From a virus (Duplodnaviria > Heunggongvirae > Uroviricota > Caudoviricetes), in IMG/VR virus record IMGVR_UViG_2802429245_000001, positions 1-12,360 of that record: a stretch of DNA of 12,360 bases; one strand, given 5' to 3'. Both the position numbers and the translations under genes were made by a program. The notes below the pieces were generated by a model, which had not been told where the DNA came from, searched no databases, and saw only the letters and a list, made by a program, of their open reading frames with translations. Numbering within the stretch: position 1 is the first letter of the stretch; each line of letters begins with the position of its first letter. Of this stretch, positions 3,995 through 10,583 are shown piece after piece.

Positions 3995-5143
3995 ATGACC
4001 TGGCCATCTGTCACGATCGAACAGTACAACACATTCAGCAGTTCACCGGACGGCGTGGAAAATACACTGCTGTTTGTGGGCAATGCACAAAACAACAAAG
4101 GTAAGGTTCTGCCGGTTAACGCTAACAGCGATCTGGATGAACTGCTGGGAACGAACGCCAGCCCGCTGAAGAATTTCCTTCAGTCCGCACTGACCAATGC
4201 CGGGCAGAACGCCTTTTTCTATGTTGCCGTTCTGCCGGAAGCAGGCAGGGGCAAAGAAGCGACGCCAGCCTGCCAGGCATGGCAGAACGCCATACTGGCG
4301 GCTCAGGAAACTGTTTCAGTTGAAGGCGTGGTGATCACCGAACCGGTCAGCACGAAGGATGACATCAACGCCATACAGGCGTTACGTCAGACCATCATCA
4401 ATAAATATCAGCGCCGCATCTGGTTCATTCTGACCATTGCCGCCAATAACTGCAGCAAAACCTGGGCAGATTACGTTGCTGAACTGACCACGCTACAGGA
4501 AGGCATCGCCGCCCCGCAAATCATGCTGGTTCCGGAAATTTTTGGCTTTGAACCGGGCGTTCTTGCCGGCCGTCTGTGTAACAGCGCCGTCACCATTGCT
4601 GACAGTCCGGCGCGTGTGGCAACCGGGGGCCTGTCCGCACTGAAAACCACTGAACGCCCGAAGGACAGCGCAGGGCAGGCAATTGATCTCGCCACCCTGC
4701 AGGCACTGGCAACCGCCCGCTACAGCGTGCCCATGTGGTATGCCGACTATGACGGCCTTTACTGGGCTGACGGTGTAACACTTGAAGTGGAAGGTGGGGA
4801 CTACAACGTCATTGAGCATGTCCGCATTGCTGATAAGGTGGCGCGCCGCGTGCGGCTGATAGCCATCCCCAAGATTGCAGATCGCTCGCTGAACAGCACG
4901 CCGGGTAGCATTGCCGCACATGAAACGCTGTTTGCCCGCCCACTGCGTGCCATGGCGAAATCCACGCAAATTAACGGCATCACATTTCCGGGAGAAGTGA
5001 AATCGCCCCGGAAAGGCGACGTGGTTATCACCTGGCAGGACGAAAAGACGGTCAGCATCAGCATTGTCGTCCGCCCTTACGCCTGCCCTAAAACCATCAA
5101 AGTGGGCATTCAGCTGGATAAATCTCTGGAGGAAAACGCATGA
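3995..5143 (+). CDS. Putative contractile tail sheath protein (DUF2586-like family, non-P2 type)
   Basis: 382-aa product with SD AGGAG 7 nt upstream of ATG 3995. It sits in the canonical myovirus order sheath - tube - chaperone - tape measure. The track ORF start at 3863 overlaps the previous gene and is rejected. No clear similarity to P2 FI from recall. Confidence 0.55.
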   Translation: MTWPSVTIEQYNTFSSSPDGVENTLLFVGNAQNNKGKVLPVNANSDLDELLGTNASPLKNFLQSALTNAGQNAFFYVAVLPEAGRGKEATPACQAWQNAILAAQETVSVEGVVITEPVSTKDDINAIQALRQTIINKYQRRIWFILTIAANNCSKTWADYVAELTTLQEGIAAPQIMLVPEIFGFEPGVLAGRLCNSAVTIADSPARVATGGLSALKTTERPKDSAGQAIDLATLQALATARYSVPMWYADYDGLYWADGVTLEVEGGDYNVIEHVRIADKVARRVRLIAIPKIADRSLNSTPGSIAAHETLFARPLRAMAKSTQINGITFPGEVKSPRKGDVVITWQDEKTVSISIVVRPYACPKTIKVGIQLDKSLEENA

Positions 5144-5595
5144 CGACCCGCATTAACGGCATGGCGTTTGACACTTTTATCGGTGGAACGGATATCCATG
5201 TGAAAAGCATCTCACTGGACATCAGCGATGAAAGCGCCGTTGCCAAAACCCGTGGCATCCCTGACGGCAAACTGCGCGGCCCTGTCAGTGCCGAAGGTGA
5301 AATCGAAATGAGTACCCGCAGCTTTAACCAGCTCGGGGAAGTGGCTGCTCAGGCGGGATCGTGGCGTGACCTGCCGCCAATGGATTTTGTGTTTTACGCC
5401 AATACGGGAACCGAAGAAATCCGCGTTGAAGCCTTCGGTTGTGAGCTGATGCTTTCCGGCCTGTTAAGCATTGACACCGAGAGCGCAGATCTGACCACGC
5501 ACAAAATCAAGTACGTGGTGGCAAGCCCTGACTTTGTGCGTATCAACGGCGTGCCCGTTCTCTCAGAGAACGACGTGCGCGGACTGATGGGGTGA
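5140..5595 (+). CDS. Putative tail tube protein (DUF2597-like)
   Basis: 151-aa ORF whose start overlaps the sheath stop (ATGA at 5140-5143), with GGAGGA upstream. Size and position between sheath and the chaperone/tape measure genes fit a tube protein. Confidence 0.5.
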   Translation: MTTRINGMAFDTFIGGTDIHVKSISLDISDESAVAKTRGIPDGKLRGPVSAEGEIEMSTRSFNQLGEVAAQAGSWRDLPPMDFVFYANTGTEEIRVEAFGCELMLSGLLSIDTESADLTTHKIKYVVASPDFVRINGVPVLSENDVRGLMG

Positions 5596-5598
5596 ACC

Positions 5599-5895
5599 AT
5601 GCAGGAGCATGAGCGCACCATTATCACTCTGGGCATTCTGGGCGGAATCGCTGCCGCAAGTCGGGTGCTGGCTGGCGCAGAGCCGATTACGTTGCGGTTG
5701 TTTGTGGGCCGAACCCTGCTGGGGAGCGCGCTGGGTGTTTCTGCCGCTGCCCTGCTGGTTCGCTACCCGAATCTTGACCCACTGGCCATTGCCGGCGCAG
5801 GCACCGCAATGGGCGTTGCCGGTTACCAGATTGTTGAAATCTTCCTGCGTCATATGCGCCGGAAGCTGGACGAGAAAGAGAACAAAGAGGAGTAA
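5599..5895 (+). CDS. Holin (3 predicted transmembrane segments, charged C-terminus)
   Basis: 98 aa with three hydrophobic stretches (TIITLGILGGIAAASRVLAG, LRLFVGRTLLGSALGVSAAALLV, LAIAGAGTAMGVAGYQIVEIFL) and a highly charged tail (RHMRRKLDEKENKEE). SD GGGGTGA is upstream of ATG 5599 and the gene lies just upstream of the endolysin. Confidence 0.65.
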   Translation: MQEHERTIITLGILGGIAAASRVLAGAEPITLRLFVGRTLLGSALGVSAAALLVRYPNLDPLAIAGAGTAMGVAGYQIVEIFLRHMRRKLDEKENKEE

Positions 5896-5900
5896 CCGCA

Positions 5901-6008
5901 ATGTTGTCCCGCAGGGAACAAAAAGCCGCTGCCATTGCCTGGAAAATTATCCGGGCACTGTGGTACTGGCTGCGCAAACCTCAGCAACCTCATAAGGAGC
6001 AAAAATGA
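5901..6008 (+). CDS. Small basic amphipathic peptide (35 aa), hypothetical; between holin and endolysin
   Basis: ATG 5901 is preceded by a strong SD, AGAGGAG, with an 8-nt spacer. Translation is MLSRREQKAAAIAWKIIRALWYWLRKPQQPHKEQK. The stop TGA 6006-6008 overlaps the endolysin start ATG 6005-6007. It is below the size cutoff of the ORF track. Confidence 0.35.
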   Translation: MLSRREQKAAAIAWKIIRALWYWLRKPQQPHKEQK

Positions 6009-6346
6009 AACTCTCCGATAAGCAACAACAATTTACCGTCATGATCGGAAAACTCATCCAGTTTGCCCATCAGCGCGGTTATGGCCTGACGTTCGGTGAG
6101 GCGTACCGCACGCCAGAACAGGCAAAACTCAACGCACAAAAGGGATCCGGCATTGCCAACAGCCTGCACTGCCAGCGGCTGGCCGTGGATTTTAATCTGT
6201 TTATTAACGGTGAATATCAGACCCGCACAGAGGCCTACCGCGAGCTGGGCGAGTACTGGGAATCCCTTGGTGGCGCATGGGGCGGTCGTTTTAAAAACCG
6301 CCCGGATGGCAATCATTTCAGCCTTGAGCACGACGGCGTGCGCTGA
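6005..6346 (+). CDS. Endolysin, peptidase M15 (LAS-type zinc metallopeptidase, probable L-alanyl-D-glutamate endopeptidase)
   Basis: 113 aa with a perfect SD AAGGAG 4 nt upstream of ATG 6005. Metal-binding motifs SLHCQRLAVDF (H-x6-D) and DGNHFSLEHDG resemble T5-type M15 endolysins from recall. No signal peptide or SAR segment. Confidence 0.82.
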   Translation: MKLSDKQQQFTVMIGKLIQFAHQRGYGLTFGEAYRTPEQAKLNAQKGSGIANSLHCQRLAVDFNLFINGEYQTRTEAYRELGEYWESLGGAWGGRFKNRPDGNHFSLEHDGVR

Positions 6347-6353
6347 TTTTACG

Positions 6354-6383
6354 CTTAATAAGCCTTCCTGCAGGCTTATTAAG
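6354..6383 (+). terminator. Stem-loop (11-12 bp stem) immediately after the endolysin stop; possible attenuator or terminator without a strong U-tract
   Basis: CTTAATAAGCC (6354-6364) pairs with GGCTTATTAAG (6373-6383), and the loop region contains the palindrome CCTGCAGG. It is followed by CCCTCTTATTCTTGAC rather than a clean T-run. Confidence 0.3.
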
Positions 6384-6410
6384 CCCTCTTATTCTTGACT
6401 TTAAAAGGAA

Positions 6411-6704
6411 ATGATGATGAACGATAAAAACACCCAGACTACCGCAGAGAACACCATCACTTTACAGGTCGGCGAGCATGAACTGACGTTTATCCCGACC
6501 GTAAAAGCCTACAACGACCTGCAGAACGACTTCATGCCGGATAACAAAATCGCGCCGCTGAAAAACTACCTGCGCCGTATCGTGATTAAAGAGCACCGCG
6601 ATCTGCTGAACCAGCTGCTGGAAAAACCAGGAATGCCGGCCAGCCTGGCAACAGCCGTGAATAACGAGTTTGTGCCGGAAGTGGAAATCACCGTAAAAAA
6701 ATAA
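6411..6704 (+). CDS. Tail assembly chaperone (P2 gpE-like / lambda gpG analogue)
   Basis: 97-aa ORF directly upstream of the tape measure gene, ending ...EITVKK* at a run of A residues. Three tandem ATGs lie at 6411/6414/6417 and the AAAGGA SD favours the second or third. Confidence 0.7.
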   Translation: MMMNDKNTQTTAENTITLQVGEHELTFIPTVKAYNDLQNDFMPDNKIAPLKNYLRRIVIKEHRDLLNQLLEKPGMPASLATAVNNEFVPEVEITVKK

Positions 6705-6892
6705 AAAGCCATCTGGGAGCCATTGATCGCAATGACCTTACCCGGATGCTGATTCTGCGCCGCCACTGGCTGCCCGGCGAGGATGACTCGCCGCAGTCAC
6801 TGGCTGCCGCCGTCTGGCTGGATAACCACTACTGGGAAAATATGAGCATCGCCGTCAATAACGGCATTATCCGTGCTTTTAAGGGATCGTAA
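6411..6892 (+). CDS. Tail assembly chaperone, -1 frameshift-extended isoform (gpE+E' / G-T analogue), predicted ~160 aa
   Basis: The -1 frame is open from the slippery site to TAA 6890-6892, which overlaps the tape measure ATG (TAATG). The extension reads IKSHLGAIDRNDLTRMLILRRHWLPGEDDSPQSLAAAVWLDNHYWENMSIAVNNGIIRAFKGS. Recoding at this position is conserved in the chaperones of long-tailed phages. Confidence 0.55.
6695..6701 (+). other. Candidate -1 programmed ribosomal frameshift slippery heptamer A_AAA_AAA, followed immediately by the zero-frame stop TAA
   Basis: Zero-frame codons are GTA AAA AAA TAA. The heptamer AAAAAAA at 6695-6701 allows both lysyl-tRNAs to re-pair in the -1 frame, after which the reading frame continues ATA AAA AGC and onward. 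Confidence 0.5.
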
Positions 6893-9066
6893 TGTCACAA
6901 CAGCGCCTTGAATTACTTCTTGAACTGACAGACCGCCTGACAAGGCCGTTGCGTGCAGCCGGGCGACAGGTTCAGGGATTTGCTGCAACAAGTCGGGGAG
7001 CCTTTCGGGACATTGCTACCGGAGGCGCTGCGCTCTGGGGAGTGGGTGCAGCCATTCAGGGGGCACTGATGCCAGCCATTGAAATGGACAGGGCGCTCGG
7101 TGAGGTGAAATCACTGGGCGTCGCAGAGTCCGGATTGCGTAAACTCAGCCGCGCCGCCGTTGATTTCACTATGGAATACGGCGGGGCTGCGCAGGATTTT
7201 GTGCGTGCGTCATACGACATCCAGTCAGCCATTGCCGGGTTAACTGACGATGAGCTGTCCCGCTTCACCACCGCATCAGCAACGGTGGCAGCAGCAACCA
7301 AATCCAGCAGCCAGACCATTACCGCCTACATGGGCACCATGTACGGCATCTTTAAAGACCAGGCTGATGCCATGGGAAAAAGCAAATGGGTGGAGCAGGT
7401 CGCCGGGCAAACCGCCACCGCCGTGCAAATGTTTAAAACAACCGGCGATAACATGTCAGCGGCGTTCACCACGCTGGGTGCCAGTGCAAAAGCGGCCGGT
7501 ATTGATGCGGCTGAACAGTTCGCCGTGCTGGGACAACTACAGGCCACCATGAGTGGCAGCGAGGCAGGGACGAAATACAAAGCATTTCTTGCCGCAGTAG
7601 GCAGCGCCCAGAAAAAGCTGGGGCTTAATTTCGTGAATAAAGACGGCACGATGAAAAGTGTTGTCGAGATCATGAAACTTATCAGGGGCAAATTTGGTGA
7701 TCTGTCAAAAGTGGCTGATTCCGATTTGCTGAAAAGCGCCTTTGGCTCCGATGAAGCTGTGGCCATGATTAAATTACTCAATGCGGACATTGGCGGACTT
7801 GAAAAGAATATCGCCACGCTGGGCAATATCAAAGGTATGGATAAGGCTGTCGAAATGGCACAAGCCATGGCCGATCCATGGGAACAGGCCGCTGCAATTA
7901 TTAACGGCATTCGCATCGAAATTGGCACGCAGTTGTTGCCTGTTCTGTACCCGTTTATCCAGAAAAGCAACGAAGGCGGCAAATCCTTTGTTGCCTGGTT
8001 ACGTCTGTATCCAAACATCACGCGCGCAATTGGTTTACTGGCGGGGACTTTTCTTAGCCTCGCAACCGTTGGCGCTCTCAGCAATATCATCATGGGACTG
8101 TTCAGCTTTGTAACAAAAGGGCTGATTGCCCCCGTAACAGGCTTAATAAAGCTTCTCAGGTTAAGCGCATTGCGAAATACACTGGCCGCTGCTGCAACAG
8201 GGGCTTATGCCGCTGCACAACAATATCTGAACAGGGTCATGCTGGTTTCAATGCTGACAGGACGCGGCTTTCTTACCACCATGCTGATGATGAGCGGGCC
8301 CATTCTGCTTATTGGTGCAGCCATTGCAGCAGTTGTTGCTCTTGTCTGGAAATTCTGGGAACCCATCAAAGCGTTTTTCAGCGGATTCATTCAGGGGTTC
8401 AGCGATGCATGGAAGACTATTTCACTTGGCTCTCCCATTCTGGCCGATATCGGCGCTGTTTTTGGTTTTGTATGGGATGCCATCAAAACAGCATTTAACT
8501 GGCTGATGAATTTACTCACACCGGTAGAACTGACGGGCGAAGCGTTCGGACGCGCCAGCGATGCCGGTGCGTCTTTTGGCCGTATCGTTGCCACAGCAAT
8601 CAACTGGATCCTGACGCCCACTGAAATCATGCTCGGACTGTTATCAAAAGTGTGGCAGGCCCTGCTCATTATTCTGCAGGGGTATAAGGATATCTGGAAC
8701 AGCCTGGATATTACTCACCCCCTAGATTCACTGAAAAATCTGGCTTCCGGGATCCTGGCTATTTTCAGCAACCTCTGGGAACTGGTGAAACAGTCCTTCA
8801 GTGATTCATGGGGCTGGATTGTGGACAAACTCAACATGATCCCCGGCGTTAACATCGGCACATCAGAAAGCACAGGAAGTGGCGAAGGCTCCGTATTAAC
8901 CGGCGGTAAAGCCATCAGCGCGGGGCCGGGTGGCATTGCGGCAGAAATGCAGAACAACAGCGAAAACCAGACCACCATCGACAACTCCCGTCGTGTGGTC
9001 AACGTCAATGTGCAGGATCCATCCCCTGCCCGTCTTAACGAGTGGATGGAGCTGCATGCATACTGA
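6892..9066 (+). CDS. Tail tape measure protein
   Basis: 724 aa with an Ala-rich, helical N-terminal half, central hydrophobic segments and C-terminal aromatic periodicity typical of tape measure proteins. It lies immediately downstream of the frameshifting chaperone. By the roughly 0.15 nm per residue rule this predicts a tail on the order of 100 nm (inference). Confidence 0.88.
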   Translation: MSQQRLELLLELTDRLTRPLRAAGRQVQGFAATSRGAFRDIATGGAALWGVGAAIQGALMPAIEMDRALGEVKSLGVAESGLRKLSRAAVDFTMEYGGAAQDFVRASYDIQSAIAGLTDDELSRFTTASATVAAATKSSSQTITAYMGTMYGIFKDQADAMGKSKWVEQVAGQTATAVQMFKTTGDNMSAAFTTLGASAKAAGIDAAEQFAVLGQLQATMSGSEAGTKYKAFLAAVGSAQKKLGLNFVNKDGTMKSVVEIMKLIRGKFGDLSKVADSDLLKSAFGSDEAVAMIKLLNADIGGLEKNIATLGNIKGMDKAVEMAQAMADPWEQAAAIINGIRIEIGTQLLPVLYPFIQKSNEGGKSFVAWLRLYPNITRAIGLLAGTFLSLATVGALSNIIMGLFSFVTKGLIAPVTGLIKLLRLSALRNTLAAAATGAYAAAQQYLNRVMLVSMLTGRGFLTTMLMMSGPILLIGAAIAAVVALVWKFWEPIKAFFSGFIQGFSDAWKTISLGSPILADIGAVFGFVWDAIKTAFNWLMNLLTPVELTGEAFGRASDAGASFGRIVATAINWILTPTEIMLGLLSKVWQALLIILQGYKDIWNSLDITHPLDSLKNLASGILAIFSNLWELVKQSFSDSWGWIVDKLNMIPGVNIGTSESTGSGEGSVLTGGKAISAGPGGIAAEMQNNSENQTTIDNSRRVVNVNVQDPSPARLNEWMELHAY

Positions 9067-9406
9067 TAAAACGCTTTACATTGATTTGCTCATCACCGGC
9101 CGCAATCTCACGCTGAACAGCGCCAGTGAGCCGGTGTTATGCAACAACAGGGAAAGTATTGCCCAGGACTGCCAGCACGCCATCATTGAGAGCGGACTGG
9201 CAACGCGCCTGCTGGCTGAAAAAAGCCCGACGCTTCGTGCCGACATCATGATGCAGATGACACTGCTGATTGAAGATGATGAGCGTATTACGCCTGGCAC
9301 GGTCAGTGTGACAGAAGAAACCCCGCTTTCTGGTCGCCTGCTGATTAGCGCCCACACCGAAGATTTTTTTGAACCCCTGACTTTTACGGTATCTCTTGAT
9401 GATTAA
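9056..9406 (+). CDS. Small baseplate-associated protein (DUF2590-like; possibly gpW/gp25-like wedge protein)
   Basis: 116 aa with ATG 9056 preceded by GGAG at 9048-9051. It overlaps the tape measure 3' end by 11 nt and precedes baseplate J. Size and position fit a gpW/gp25-like protein, but sequence similarity is weak from recall. Confidence 0.45.
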   Translation: MHTDKTLYIDLLITGRNLTLNSASEPVLCNNRESIAQDCQHAIIESGLATRLLAEKSPTLRADIMMQMTLLIEDDERITPGTVSVTEETPLSGRLLISAHTEDFFEPLTFTVSLDD

Positions 9407-10583
9407 CGGCAAACCTACTGCAGATTACGAGCGCATTCTGGCTGATAATGGCATGCCGGTAACCGAAGAACAGGCTCGCGCTGAATTTGAAGCCATTGTC
9501 AAAGACGAAGGGCTTATCACCAACACTTCCCGCATGTCGCCGTTCTGGCGACTGATTACAGCTATCACCACAAAACCCGTGATGTGGCTGAAAGATGCGC
9601 TGGTTAATGTGGTGATGAAAAACCTGTTTCTGGCTGATGCCAGCGGTGTATTCGTTGATGTTTTTGCCTGGGCGGTAAACCTGCAACGCAAGGCCGCCAC
9701 GCACGCAGCCGGCGAGATTCGTTTCACCAAAAACGACATTGATCGCGCAGTTACCGTGTCGGCCGGTACGCAGATTCAGACAGAACGCATTAACGGCGTG
9801 ATTTATACGCTGACCGTTGTCAGGGATACCGTTATTCCGGCAGGAACACTCAGCATGAACATCGATGTTTCTGCGGAACAGGCCGGAGCCGGCTTTAACC
9901 TTGCGCCGGGATATTACCGCATCCTTCCGGTGGCGATTGATGGTATTGCCGGCGTTGAGAACGATGAAAACTGGCTGACCACACCGGGTGCCAACGAAGA
10001 AAGCGATGACGAGTTGCGTGATCGTGTTCGCAATCAGTTTAATCTTGCCGGCGCTTATCACACCGATGCAGTTTACCGGGGATTAATTGCCGGCGTTGCC
10101 GGCATCAGTGCCGACCGCATCTATTTTCTGCATGACGCACCACGCGGCCCCGGCACAGCAAATGCTTACATTCTGCTGGATACCGGCATCGCATCCGAAC
10201 CGTTCGTTGATGCAGTAAACGCATTCATTAACGATGAAGGTCATCACGGACACGGTGATGATCTGCGCTGTTTTTCCATGCCTGAAACACGCCACACCCT
10301 GACCGTGACACTCTGGTTATATGCAACGCTGAACCTCAGCGATGAGGAAATTCAGACGTTATTGCGCAATGTGGAAAATCTGGTTCGCTGTGCATTTCGA
10401 GAAAACAGCGATTATGACGTTCAGAAAACATGGCCGTATAGCCGTTTCAGCATGTCCAGACTGGGCGAAGAGATCCACCAGGTATTTCCACAGGTGGAGT
10501 CGGTTACATTTTCTCTTCCGGATATTCTCAGTGATCTGGCTGTTCCTCGTCTGGAATCCCTTACTGTGGAGGTGAGCGCGTGA
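9399..10583 (+). CDS. Baseplate J / gp47 family protein
   Basis: About 394 aa. The start is either ATG 9399 or TTG 9396, overlapping the previous gene's stop at 9404-9406. Size and position are those of a baseplate J-like protein (P2 gpJ / Mu gp47), followed by an I-like gene and the tail fibre. Confidence 0.8.
   Translation: MINGKPTADYERILADNGMPVTEEQARAEFEAIVKDEGLITNTSRMSPFWRLITAITTKPVMWLKDALVNVVMKNLFLADASGVFVDVFAWAVNLQRKAATHAAGEIRFTKNDIDRAVTVSAGTQIQTERINGVIYTLTVVRDTVIPAGTLSMNIDVSAEQAGAGFNLAPGYYRILPVAIDGIAGVENDENWLTTPGANEESDDELRDRVRNQFNLAGAYHTDAVYRGLIAGVAGISADRIYFLHDAPRGPGTANAYILLDTGIASEPFVDAVNAFINDEGHHGHGDDLRCFSMPETRHTLTVTLWLYATLNLSDEEIQTLLRNVENLVRCAFRENSDYDVQKTWPYSRFSMSRLGEEIHQVFPQVESVTFSLPDILSDLAVPRLESLTVEVSA

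Follow-up and report, generated by a model that had tools for sequence, protein, structure and literature searches.

The stretch of DNA analysed here, referred to as the window, comprises 12,360 nucleotides (nt) of the virus record IMGVR_UViG_2802429245_000001 and is filled by an unbroken plus-strand series of late genes of a P2/HP1-family prophage. We studied the lysis cassette at positions 5599–6346, in which three open reading frames (ORFs) on the plus strand code for a holin of 98 amino acids (aa), a peptide of 35 aa (pep35) and an M15 endolysin of 113 aa, at the positions reported for them in an earlier description made from the letters of the window alone (the sequence-only reading). Comparison with related prophages suggested that pep35 is confined to a clade whose cassettes have lost their spanin genes, and we consider here whether this cationic peptide acts on the outer membrane in their place.

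Lysis genes at the tube-chaperone site

The cassette is bounded upstream by the tail tube gene (5140–5595, plus strand; Pfam Phage_HP1_Orf24, E 1.1e-50; PHROG 1182 tail protein, 1.1e-65) and downstream by the tail assembly chaperone gene (6411–6704, plus strand; Phage_TAC_10, PF10963), which are the flanking genes that the sequence-only reading had named. Of the Shine–Dalgarno (SD) sites that it had also claimed, GAGGAG was seen 8 nt before the 35-aa ORF and AAGGAG 6 nt before the endolysin, while the one preceding the holin, GGGGTG, was weaker. In profile searches the first product (5599–5895) matched Phage_holin_3_2 (PF04550, E 5.5e-28; 97.6 bits with a cut-off of 25), its residues 1–85 aligning to profile positions 1–85 of 86, as well as the holin family PHROG 175 (1.3e-32), and it was 49% identical to P2 gpY over residues 22–84. 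Hydropathy peaks were found at residues 8–24 (1.87) and 38–54 (1.59), together with a weaker third one at about 61–81, and the protein ends in a charged C-terminal tail, LRHMRRKLDEKENKEE. These matches identify the 98-aa protein by homology as a holin of the P2 gpY, or 'phage holin family 2', type and not as a structural tail protein. Two alternative-frame ORFs, at 5609–5995 (plus strand, 128 aa) and at 5563–5901 (minus strand, 112 aa), were set aside as overlap artefacts, since the holin frame has full-length family support; the plus-strand one is uninterrupted in all close haplotypes.

The third product (6005–6346, plus strand) matched endolysin PHROGs and scored 44.1 bits against Peptidase_M15_4 (PF13539, E 3.2e-11; gathering cut-off 25), in line with its earlier assignment to the M15 type and not to the lysozyme type of P2. 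Its H55-x6-D62 and D101-x2-H104 aligned with SRHLHGLAVD and DGVHF of PDB 8q2g, an L-alanyl-D-glutamate endopeptidase, and these four residues, which occupy the zinc/catalytic motif positions, were invariant in 10 homologues. The maximum hydropathy of the protein is 0.55 and its N-terminus is not hydrophobic, with neither a signal nor a signal-anchor-release (SAR) segment, so that it would need the holin to reach the wall. Judged by these motifs, the endolysin is a cytoplasmic zinc peptidase of the M15 family (VanY / L-Ala-D-Glu peptidase type); an identical protein is named 'M15 family metallopeptidase' by the Prokaryotic Genome Annotation Pipeline (PGAP). It shares with the M15 L-alanyl-D-glutamate peptidase endolysins (T5 endolysin; PDB 8q2g) a small single-domain architecture and the H-x6-D ... 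D-x2-H arrangement, but is only distantly related in sequence to the solved M15 structures (E 0.07). An upstream in-frame extension of the endolysin, giving 158 aa in locus L042, was rejected, as it is not conserved in the window.

The genes had been described as lying in a P2-like setting. In P2, the lysis genes (Y holin, K endolysin, lysA and the lysB/lysC spanins) are found between head gene X and tail genes R/S, and the endolysin is of the lysozyme type. The window shares with P2 the gpY-homologous holin and a related virion module (P2-family capsid and homologues of gpM, gpL, gpR and gpS), but neither the position between X and R/S nor the lysozyme nor the lysB/lysC spanins. Within the cassette region the gene order is instead that of HP1, which is annotated as sheath (orf23), tube (orf24), hol, lys, Rz-like spanin (orf25), orf26 (chaperone) and orf27 (tape measure). 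Salmonella phage SI7 likewise has tube, holin, endolysin, Rz-like spanin, chaperone and tape measure, and the tube-chaperone location and the late-operon context are common to HP1, Cronobacter phage ESSI-2, SI7 (Irrigatiovirus) and Yersinia phage vB_YenM_324. In SI7 and ESSI-2 an M15 endolysin about 80% identical to that of the window (80% for SI7) has a holin directly upstream of it, whereas the HP1 endolysin is of 186 aa and is not the 113-aa M15 enzyme.

To see how widely this placement is kept, one genome per species was searched with the endolysin, returning 39 loci. The order sheath, tube, endolysin, chaperone, DUF6890 and tape measure was found in 35 of these 39 (Escherichia albertii and 34 other Enterobacterales), and the placement of the cassette was the same in 34 of the 36 non-Escherichia species genomes scanned, all of them Enterobacterales; the genera among these 34 loci include Enterobacter, Salmonella, Yersinia, Serratia, Photorhabdus, Xenorhabdus, Morganella, Providencia and Erwinia. 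In IMG/VR, searched with an alignment of endolysins, this placement was shared by 78 of the 80 loci recovered; the order tube, holin, endolysin, spanins and chaperone was seen in 62 spanin-carrying IMG/VR contigs and in 34 of the species genomes. The holin of some relatives was too diverged to be detected by tblastn. Taken together, these comparisons indicate that the site between tube and chaperone is ancestral for the HP1-like lineage and that the location of the cassette is ordinary; both the cassette and its location were already known (HP1, 1996; ESSI-2 and SI7 annotations).

The content of the cassette varies more than its position. The M15 endolysin is 77–86% identical across clades whose tube and chaperone proteins are only 36–49% identical (about 50% for the tube), and it was also found, at 79% identity, in an unrelated cassette (L085, 2501–2842) that has two holin-like membrane proteins upstream of it and an embedded Rz/Rz1 pair downstream. 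The enzyme appears to be a module that is either strongly conserved or moved horizontally, and its presence in L085, together with a conservation exceeding that of its neighbours, indicates that modules inside the cassette are exchanged.

Spanin genes and the 35-codon reading frame

The clade of the window, as delimited by our comparisons, consists of prophages of Escherichia coli and E. albertii, E. coli E7-1N7, 22 IMG/VR contigs and one metagenome contig, and it is represented in 42 of 5426 complete E. coli genomes. In 41 of these 5426 the region itself was present at 97–99.5% identity, in every case on the chromosome, and in NZ_LR778147 the prophage around it is complete, measures about 36 kb and carries integrase, cox, replication, portal, terminase, tail and fibre genes. 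When the 2-kb region was compared with phage records by blastn, no isolate covered more than 19% of it, so the clade is known only from prophages and uncultivated viral contigs.

We compared the two intervals that flank the endolysin gene in this clade and in its spanin-bearing relatives. In the latter, the end of the holin gene mostly reaches 4 or 14 nt into the endolysin gene, and the gap is 5 nt at most, the exception being L030, with an 88-nt gap after a truncated holin. The interval between endolysin and chaperone is about 465–520 nt in nearly all of them and holds the Rz/Rz1 pair (about 490 bp), made up of an i-spanin of 109–132 aa, which has an N-terminal transmembrane domain, and, overlapping it, a lipobox-bearing o-spanin (LSAC, MSGC or LSGC). 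Two Yersinia loci (L018, 4827–5210; L021) have a gap of about 940 nt and an extra ORF for a predicted membrane protein of about 127 aa between o-spanin and chaperone. HP1 and its enterobacterial relatives carry an i-spanin and an o-spanin downstream of the endolysin, and their holin and endolysin have no ORF between them, while in the clade of the window this is reversed: holin and endolysin are separated by 106–118 nt containing an ORF of 33–41 aa, and endolysin and chaperone by 64–107 nt containing a hairpin. In the window itself this second interval is 64 nt, hairpin included, and no Rz-like spanin lies downstream of the endolysin; the window as a whole has no spanin homologue and no convincing lipobox ORF. 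Peptide ORF and spanins occurred together in none of the loci compared.

Spanins encoded elsewhere were sought in a complete prophage of the clade (L001). Two lipobox scans turned up nothing but antisense or alternative-frame artefacts, all tblastn matches to nine spanin queries had E > 0.04, and no lipoprotein or spanin appears in the PGAP annotation; those late genes that had remained unnamed matched PHROGs for tail or baseplate, or else families whose function is unknown, with no link to lysis. The antisense lipobox matches, which lie inside the replication and gpM genes, were rejected. Also rejected was a lipobox-like alternative-frame ORF, MAIISALSTTAC, contained in ORF 6096–6398 at the 3' end of the endolysin gene, as it has neither an SD site nor a charged N-region, its conservation is that of the endolysin codons it overlaps, and L042 has an entirely different sequence beyond the cysteine. 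Given the short intervals and the lack of any spanin or lipobox gene in L001, we regard the clade as spaninless, with both spanin genes lost, and the distribution of the 35-aa ORF across the loci compared marks it as a gain restricted to the same clade. Neither feature had been picked out in the sequence-only reading.

The pep35 gene (5901–6008, plus strand) starts 5 nt after the holin stop, and its own stop overlaps the endolysin ATG (ATGA). Four lineages of the peptide were distinguished: the window form, MLSRREQKAAAIAWKIIRALWYWLRKPQQPHKEQK; the P0036 form of 39 aa, MKLTDRQQKRAAIAWKILRTLWRWLCKPQKTSKDKNETL, 54% identical to it; the E7-1N7 form, MNTTDRQWRVIATLWRYGQALWRLWKKLRNSNRRE, 23% identical; and the L064 form, MTGKKASPGILSGMRQFAVKVWQLLRSLQKLRNSMNGKTRP, 17% identical. 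Across the same four lineages the tube, holin, endolysin and chaperone share 68–95% identity. All four forms nevertheless measure 35–41 aa and have a net charge of +7 to +9 and an 18-residue hydrophobic moment of 0.61–0.78, without a transmembrane segment or a lipobox cysteine; also conserved are GAGGAG and the overlap onto the start of the endolysin. The window form is rich in Trp and Arg and has no Cys, with a net charge of +7, a hydrophobic moment of 0.62 and a maximum hydropathy of 0.57–0.81; AlphaFold predicted a single helix at residues 4–24 followed by a disordered tail. With no N-terminal transmembrane domain and no lipobox cysteine, pep35 fits neither type of spanin.

No Pfam or PHROG match was obtained for the peptide, and tblastn against 50,697 phage records returned nothing even at E ≤ 10. 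A phmmer search of 1.84 billion representative proteins recovered its own cluster and one true relative, P0036; three long repetitive proteins from the same search were discarded as compositional matches, each made through 6–14 short stretches. The exact window peptide is found on at least 1000 contigs, where it is named only 'hypothetical protein'.

Selection on the segment was evaluated from 16 close haplotypes, using only the stretch from holin to endolysin, as indels disturb the register in the spacer and the chaperone gene. The ratio of non-synonymous to synonymous polymorphism (pN/pS) was 0.33 in the pep35 frame (binomial p = 0.005), compared with 0.72 in the other two frames. When the three most divergent spacers, representing nearly independent lineages, were shuffled, an ORF spanning the spacer with a net charge of at least +6 arose in just 0.8%, 1.8% and 8.5% of shuffles. 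The 35-aa ORF is very probably a real gene, and selection on it appears to act on composition and not on exact sequence. Natural truncations were seen at L044 (3304–3387), L052, L057 and L059, leaving 27 aa (Q28 to stop) or 33 aa; they drop only the proline-rich polar C-terminal tail and retain the amphipathic helix, which may be the functional part of the peptide.

The outer-membrane step of lysis

The founding disruptin, gp28 of phage phiKT, is a peptide of 56 aa with a charge of +7 and an amphipathic helix that complements a lambda spanin defect (Holt et al., 10.1101/515445; J Bacteriol 2022). It behaves like the antimicrobial peptide LL-37 (37 aa, +6), its gene lies between endolysin and holin in a phage without a lipoprotein gene, and the only homologue reported for it is a near-identical protein in phage PGT2 (10.1101/515445). 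Taking a disruptin to be a peptide of less than 80 aa with a charge of at least +4 that is predicted to form an amphipathic helix and lacks both transmembrane domain and lipobox, we found that pep35 has the size, charge and helix expected, and that it is encoded in the lysis cassette of a phage without a spanin or lipoprotein gene. Like gp28, it is a small cationic (+7) peptide with a predicted amphipathic helix, without a transmembrane domain or lipobox, and encoded between holin and endolysin; its properties resemble those of LL-37 as well. Neither phage has a spanin or lipoprotein gene, and their partner holins belong to one family, the phiKT holin gp29 (L067, 883–1266) being 29% identical to that of the window (E 2e-11). 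The two systems differ in that pep35 is shorter (35 versus 56 aa), Trp/Arg-rich and of higher charge density, in that the gene order is holin-peptide-endolysin in the window and endolysin-peptide-holin in phiKT, and in that phiKT is a virulent podovirus with a T4-type lysozyme whereas the window belongs to a temperate myovirus prophage with an M15 peptidase. By analogy, pep35 would work like gp28 without being a member of the same family.

These observations suggest the following course of lysis. The late cassette of this HP1-like (Peduoviridae) E. coli prophage is transcribed together with the tail genes. As predicted by homology, the holin would accumulate and permeabilise the inner membrane, and the cytoplasmic M15 peptidase, released through the holin lesions, would cleave peptidoglycan cross-links. 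In the sister lineages the outer-membrane step then falls to the overlapping Rz/Rz1 pair encoded just after the endolysin, while in the clade of the window the cationic, Trp/Arg-rich amphipathic helix may bind and destabilise the outer membrane once the wall is gone, a disruptin-like action that would take over from spanin-mediated membrane fusion. That an ancestral HP1-type cassette has in this way had its spanins replaced by a cationic peptide is the best explanation among those considered, although we take it to be only about as likely as not.

Several points weigh against it. BLASTP gave no alignment of pep35 with gp28 at E ≤ 100, and the link between the two peptides consists of properties and context, without sequence similarity. 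The loss of the spanins and the gain of the peptide both go back to one clade, which makes them effectively a single evolutionary event and not a repeated, independent co-occurrence. In about 13–15% of phages no spanins can be recognised, and phages in shaken laboratory cultures can do without them, so a spaninless phage need not carry a substitute. The constraint on the peptide is also weak when compared with that on the neighbouring genes (pN/pS 0.33 versus 0.05–0.11), polymorphic sites in the segment are spread evenly over codon positions, the variants of 27 and 33 aa exist, and PGAP leaves the ORF uncalled in window-type and E7-1N7-type records.

A real pep35 could instead act at the inner membrane on the timing of lysis, as an antiholin-like or holin-assisting protein or as a trigger that lowers the proton-motive force, leaving the clade without a dedicated outer-membrane disruptor. 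The pep35 gene is the next one downstream of the holin and closely adjoins it, small accessory proteins of the holin step are known, such as Lcc6 of Shewanella LambdaSo (10.1101/2024.01.23.576932), and an accumulating cationic peptide is itself expected to be able to trigger holins early (10.1101/515445). However, the known antiholins and Lcc6 are transmembrane proteins, whereas pep35 has no transmembrane segment; the spanin-bearing sister lineages couple the holin straight to the endolysin, with no equivalent ORF; and the peptide appears exactly where the spanins disappear. We consider a role in timing unlikely, although it is the strongest of the alternatives.

Somewhat less probable still is that the 109-nt segment is a non-functional leftover from a recombination in which the spanins were lost and the holin was exchanged, its ORF being fortuitous or serving merely to couple translation of the endolysin. 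Its very fast divergence (17–54% identity, compared with 68–95% for the neighbouring products) would be expected of such a remnant, as would the even polymorphism, the truncated variants and the uncalled ORF listed above, and a second frame of the segment, too, is uninterrupted in every close haplotype. Against this stand the rarity of highly charged, full-span ORFs among the shuffled spacers, the conserved GAGGAG site and endolysin-start overlap, the retention of charge, length and amphipathicity despite near-random sequence identity, and a pN/pS that is lowest in the pep35 frame.

The view of the sequence-only reading, that holin, peptide and endolysin are an independently acquired, strain-specific lysis module inserted in a P2-like tail operon, draws some support from the different position and enzyme type in P2 and from the mobility suggested by the endolysin of L085, but is very improbable, as a lysis cassette occupies this site in HP1, SI7 and about 95 related loci of many Enterobacterales genera and in 41 of 41 E. 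coli genomes with a window-type prophage, and as a holin homologous to P2 gpY is not foreign to P2.

Neighbouring genes and significance of the peptide

The hairpin noted behind the endolysin gene in the sequence-only reading has a perfect stem of 13 bp at 6353–6384 (plus strand; −21 kcal/mol, z = −3.5 with respect to shuffles) and is followed by a conserved CCCTCTTATTCTTGAC. It occupies the place of the lost spanin genes and is conserved across the clade, with compensatory pairs changed on both sides at two or three positions. It fits the pattern of a terminator weakly, its tail being T-poor. We infer that, in a terminator-like manner, it probably reduces the transcription that reaches the low-copy genes for chaperone and tape measure, and would thus be an attenuator between abundant products (head, sheath, tube and lysis) and scarce ones (chaperone and tape measure).

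Upstream of the cassette, the window carries genes for the major capsid, small terminase, head completion, tail terminator and completion, sheath (3995–5143, plus strand) and tube; after the tube come the three ORFs of the cassette, the chaperone, DUF6890, the tape measure (6892–9066) and baseplate genes. The chaperone gene ends in GTA AAA AAA TAA, with a slippery run A AAA AAA at 6693–6699 right before the TAA (6702–6704), and the −1 frame is open from 6665 to 6892, including the DUF6890 ORF (6746–6892, plus strand; PF21830), which PGAP annotates as a separate 48-aa protein of unknown function. The A_AAA_AAA run with an open −1 frame fits a programmed −1 frameshift that would extend the chaperone into a putative chaperone-DUF6890 fusion, an analogue of P2 E/E+E' and lambda G/GT. 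The tape measure is just about 72–73% identical to those of otherwise near-identical prophages (L001, 21893–23989; L003), whose sheath, tube, holin, endolysin and chaperone are 96–100% identical to those of the window; the tail-length gene appears to be mosaic. The complete prophage L001 also has ParM-like and partition-protein genes and a Hok/Gef toxin gene (9192–10470; 34801–34941), which are plasmid-style maintenance functions within an integrated P2/HP1-like prophage.

It is the exchange of spanins for a peptide, and not the location of the cassette, that makes this locus of interest. Only gp28 of phiKT has so far been validated as a disruptin, and according to a 2026 paper it is still open whether spaninless phages use disruptins, whose diversity defeats systematic prediction (PMC12819732). 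Our search of the literature on disruptins and spaninless phages returned neither the replacement of spanins by a peptide nor this peptide family, only the gp28 work and papers citing it. Here, comparative genomics singles out one specific 35-aa candidate, carried by a prophage of many sequenced E. coli strains, for which the spanin-bearing sister prophages are natural, built-in controls. We suggest, tentatively and with slightly less confidence than the replacement itself, that pep35 and its three divergent relatives constitute a second family of disruptins, unrelated in sequence to gp28, which arose through replacement of Rz/Rz1 in an otherwise unchanged cassette and would be the first from a temperate phage with a contractile tail. 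If this is true, the clade would offer an example of one outer-membrane strategy replacing another, and pep35 would be a short, natural and genetically tractable Trp/Arg-rich antimicrobial peptide active on the Gram-negative outer membrane.

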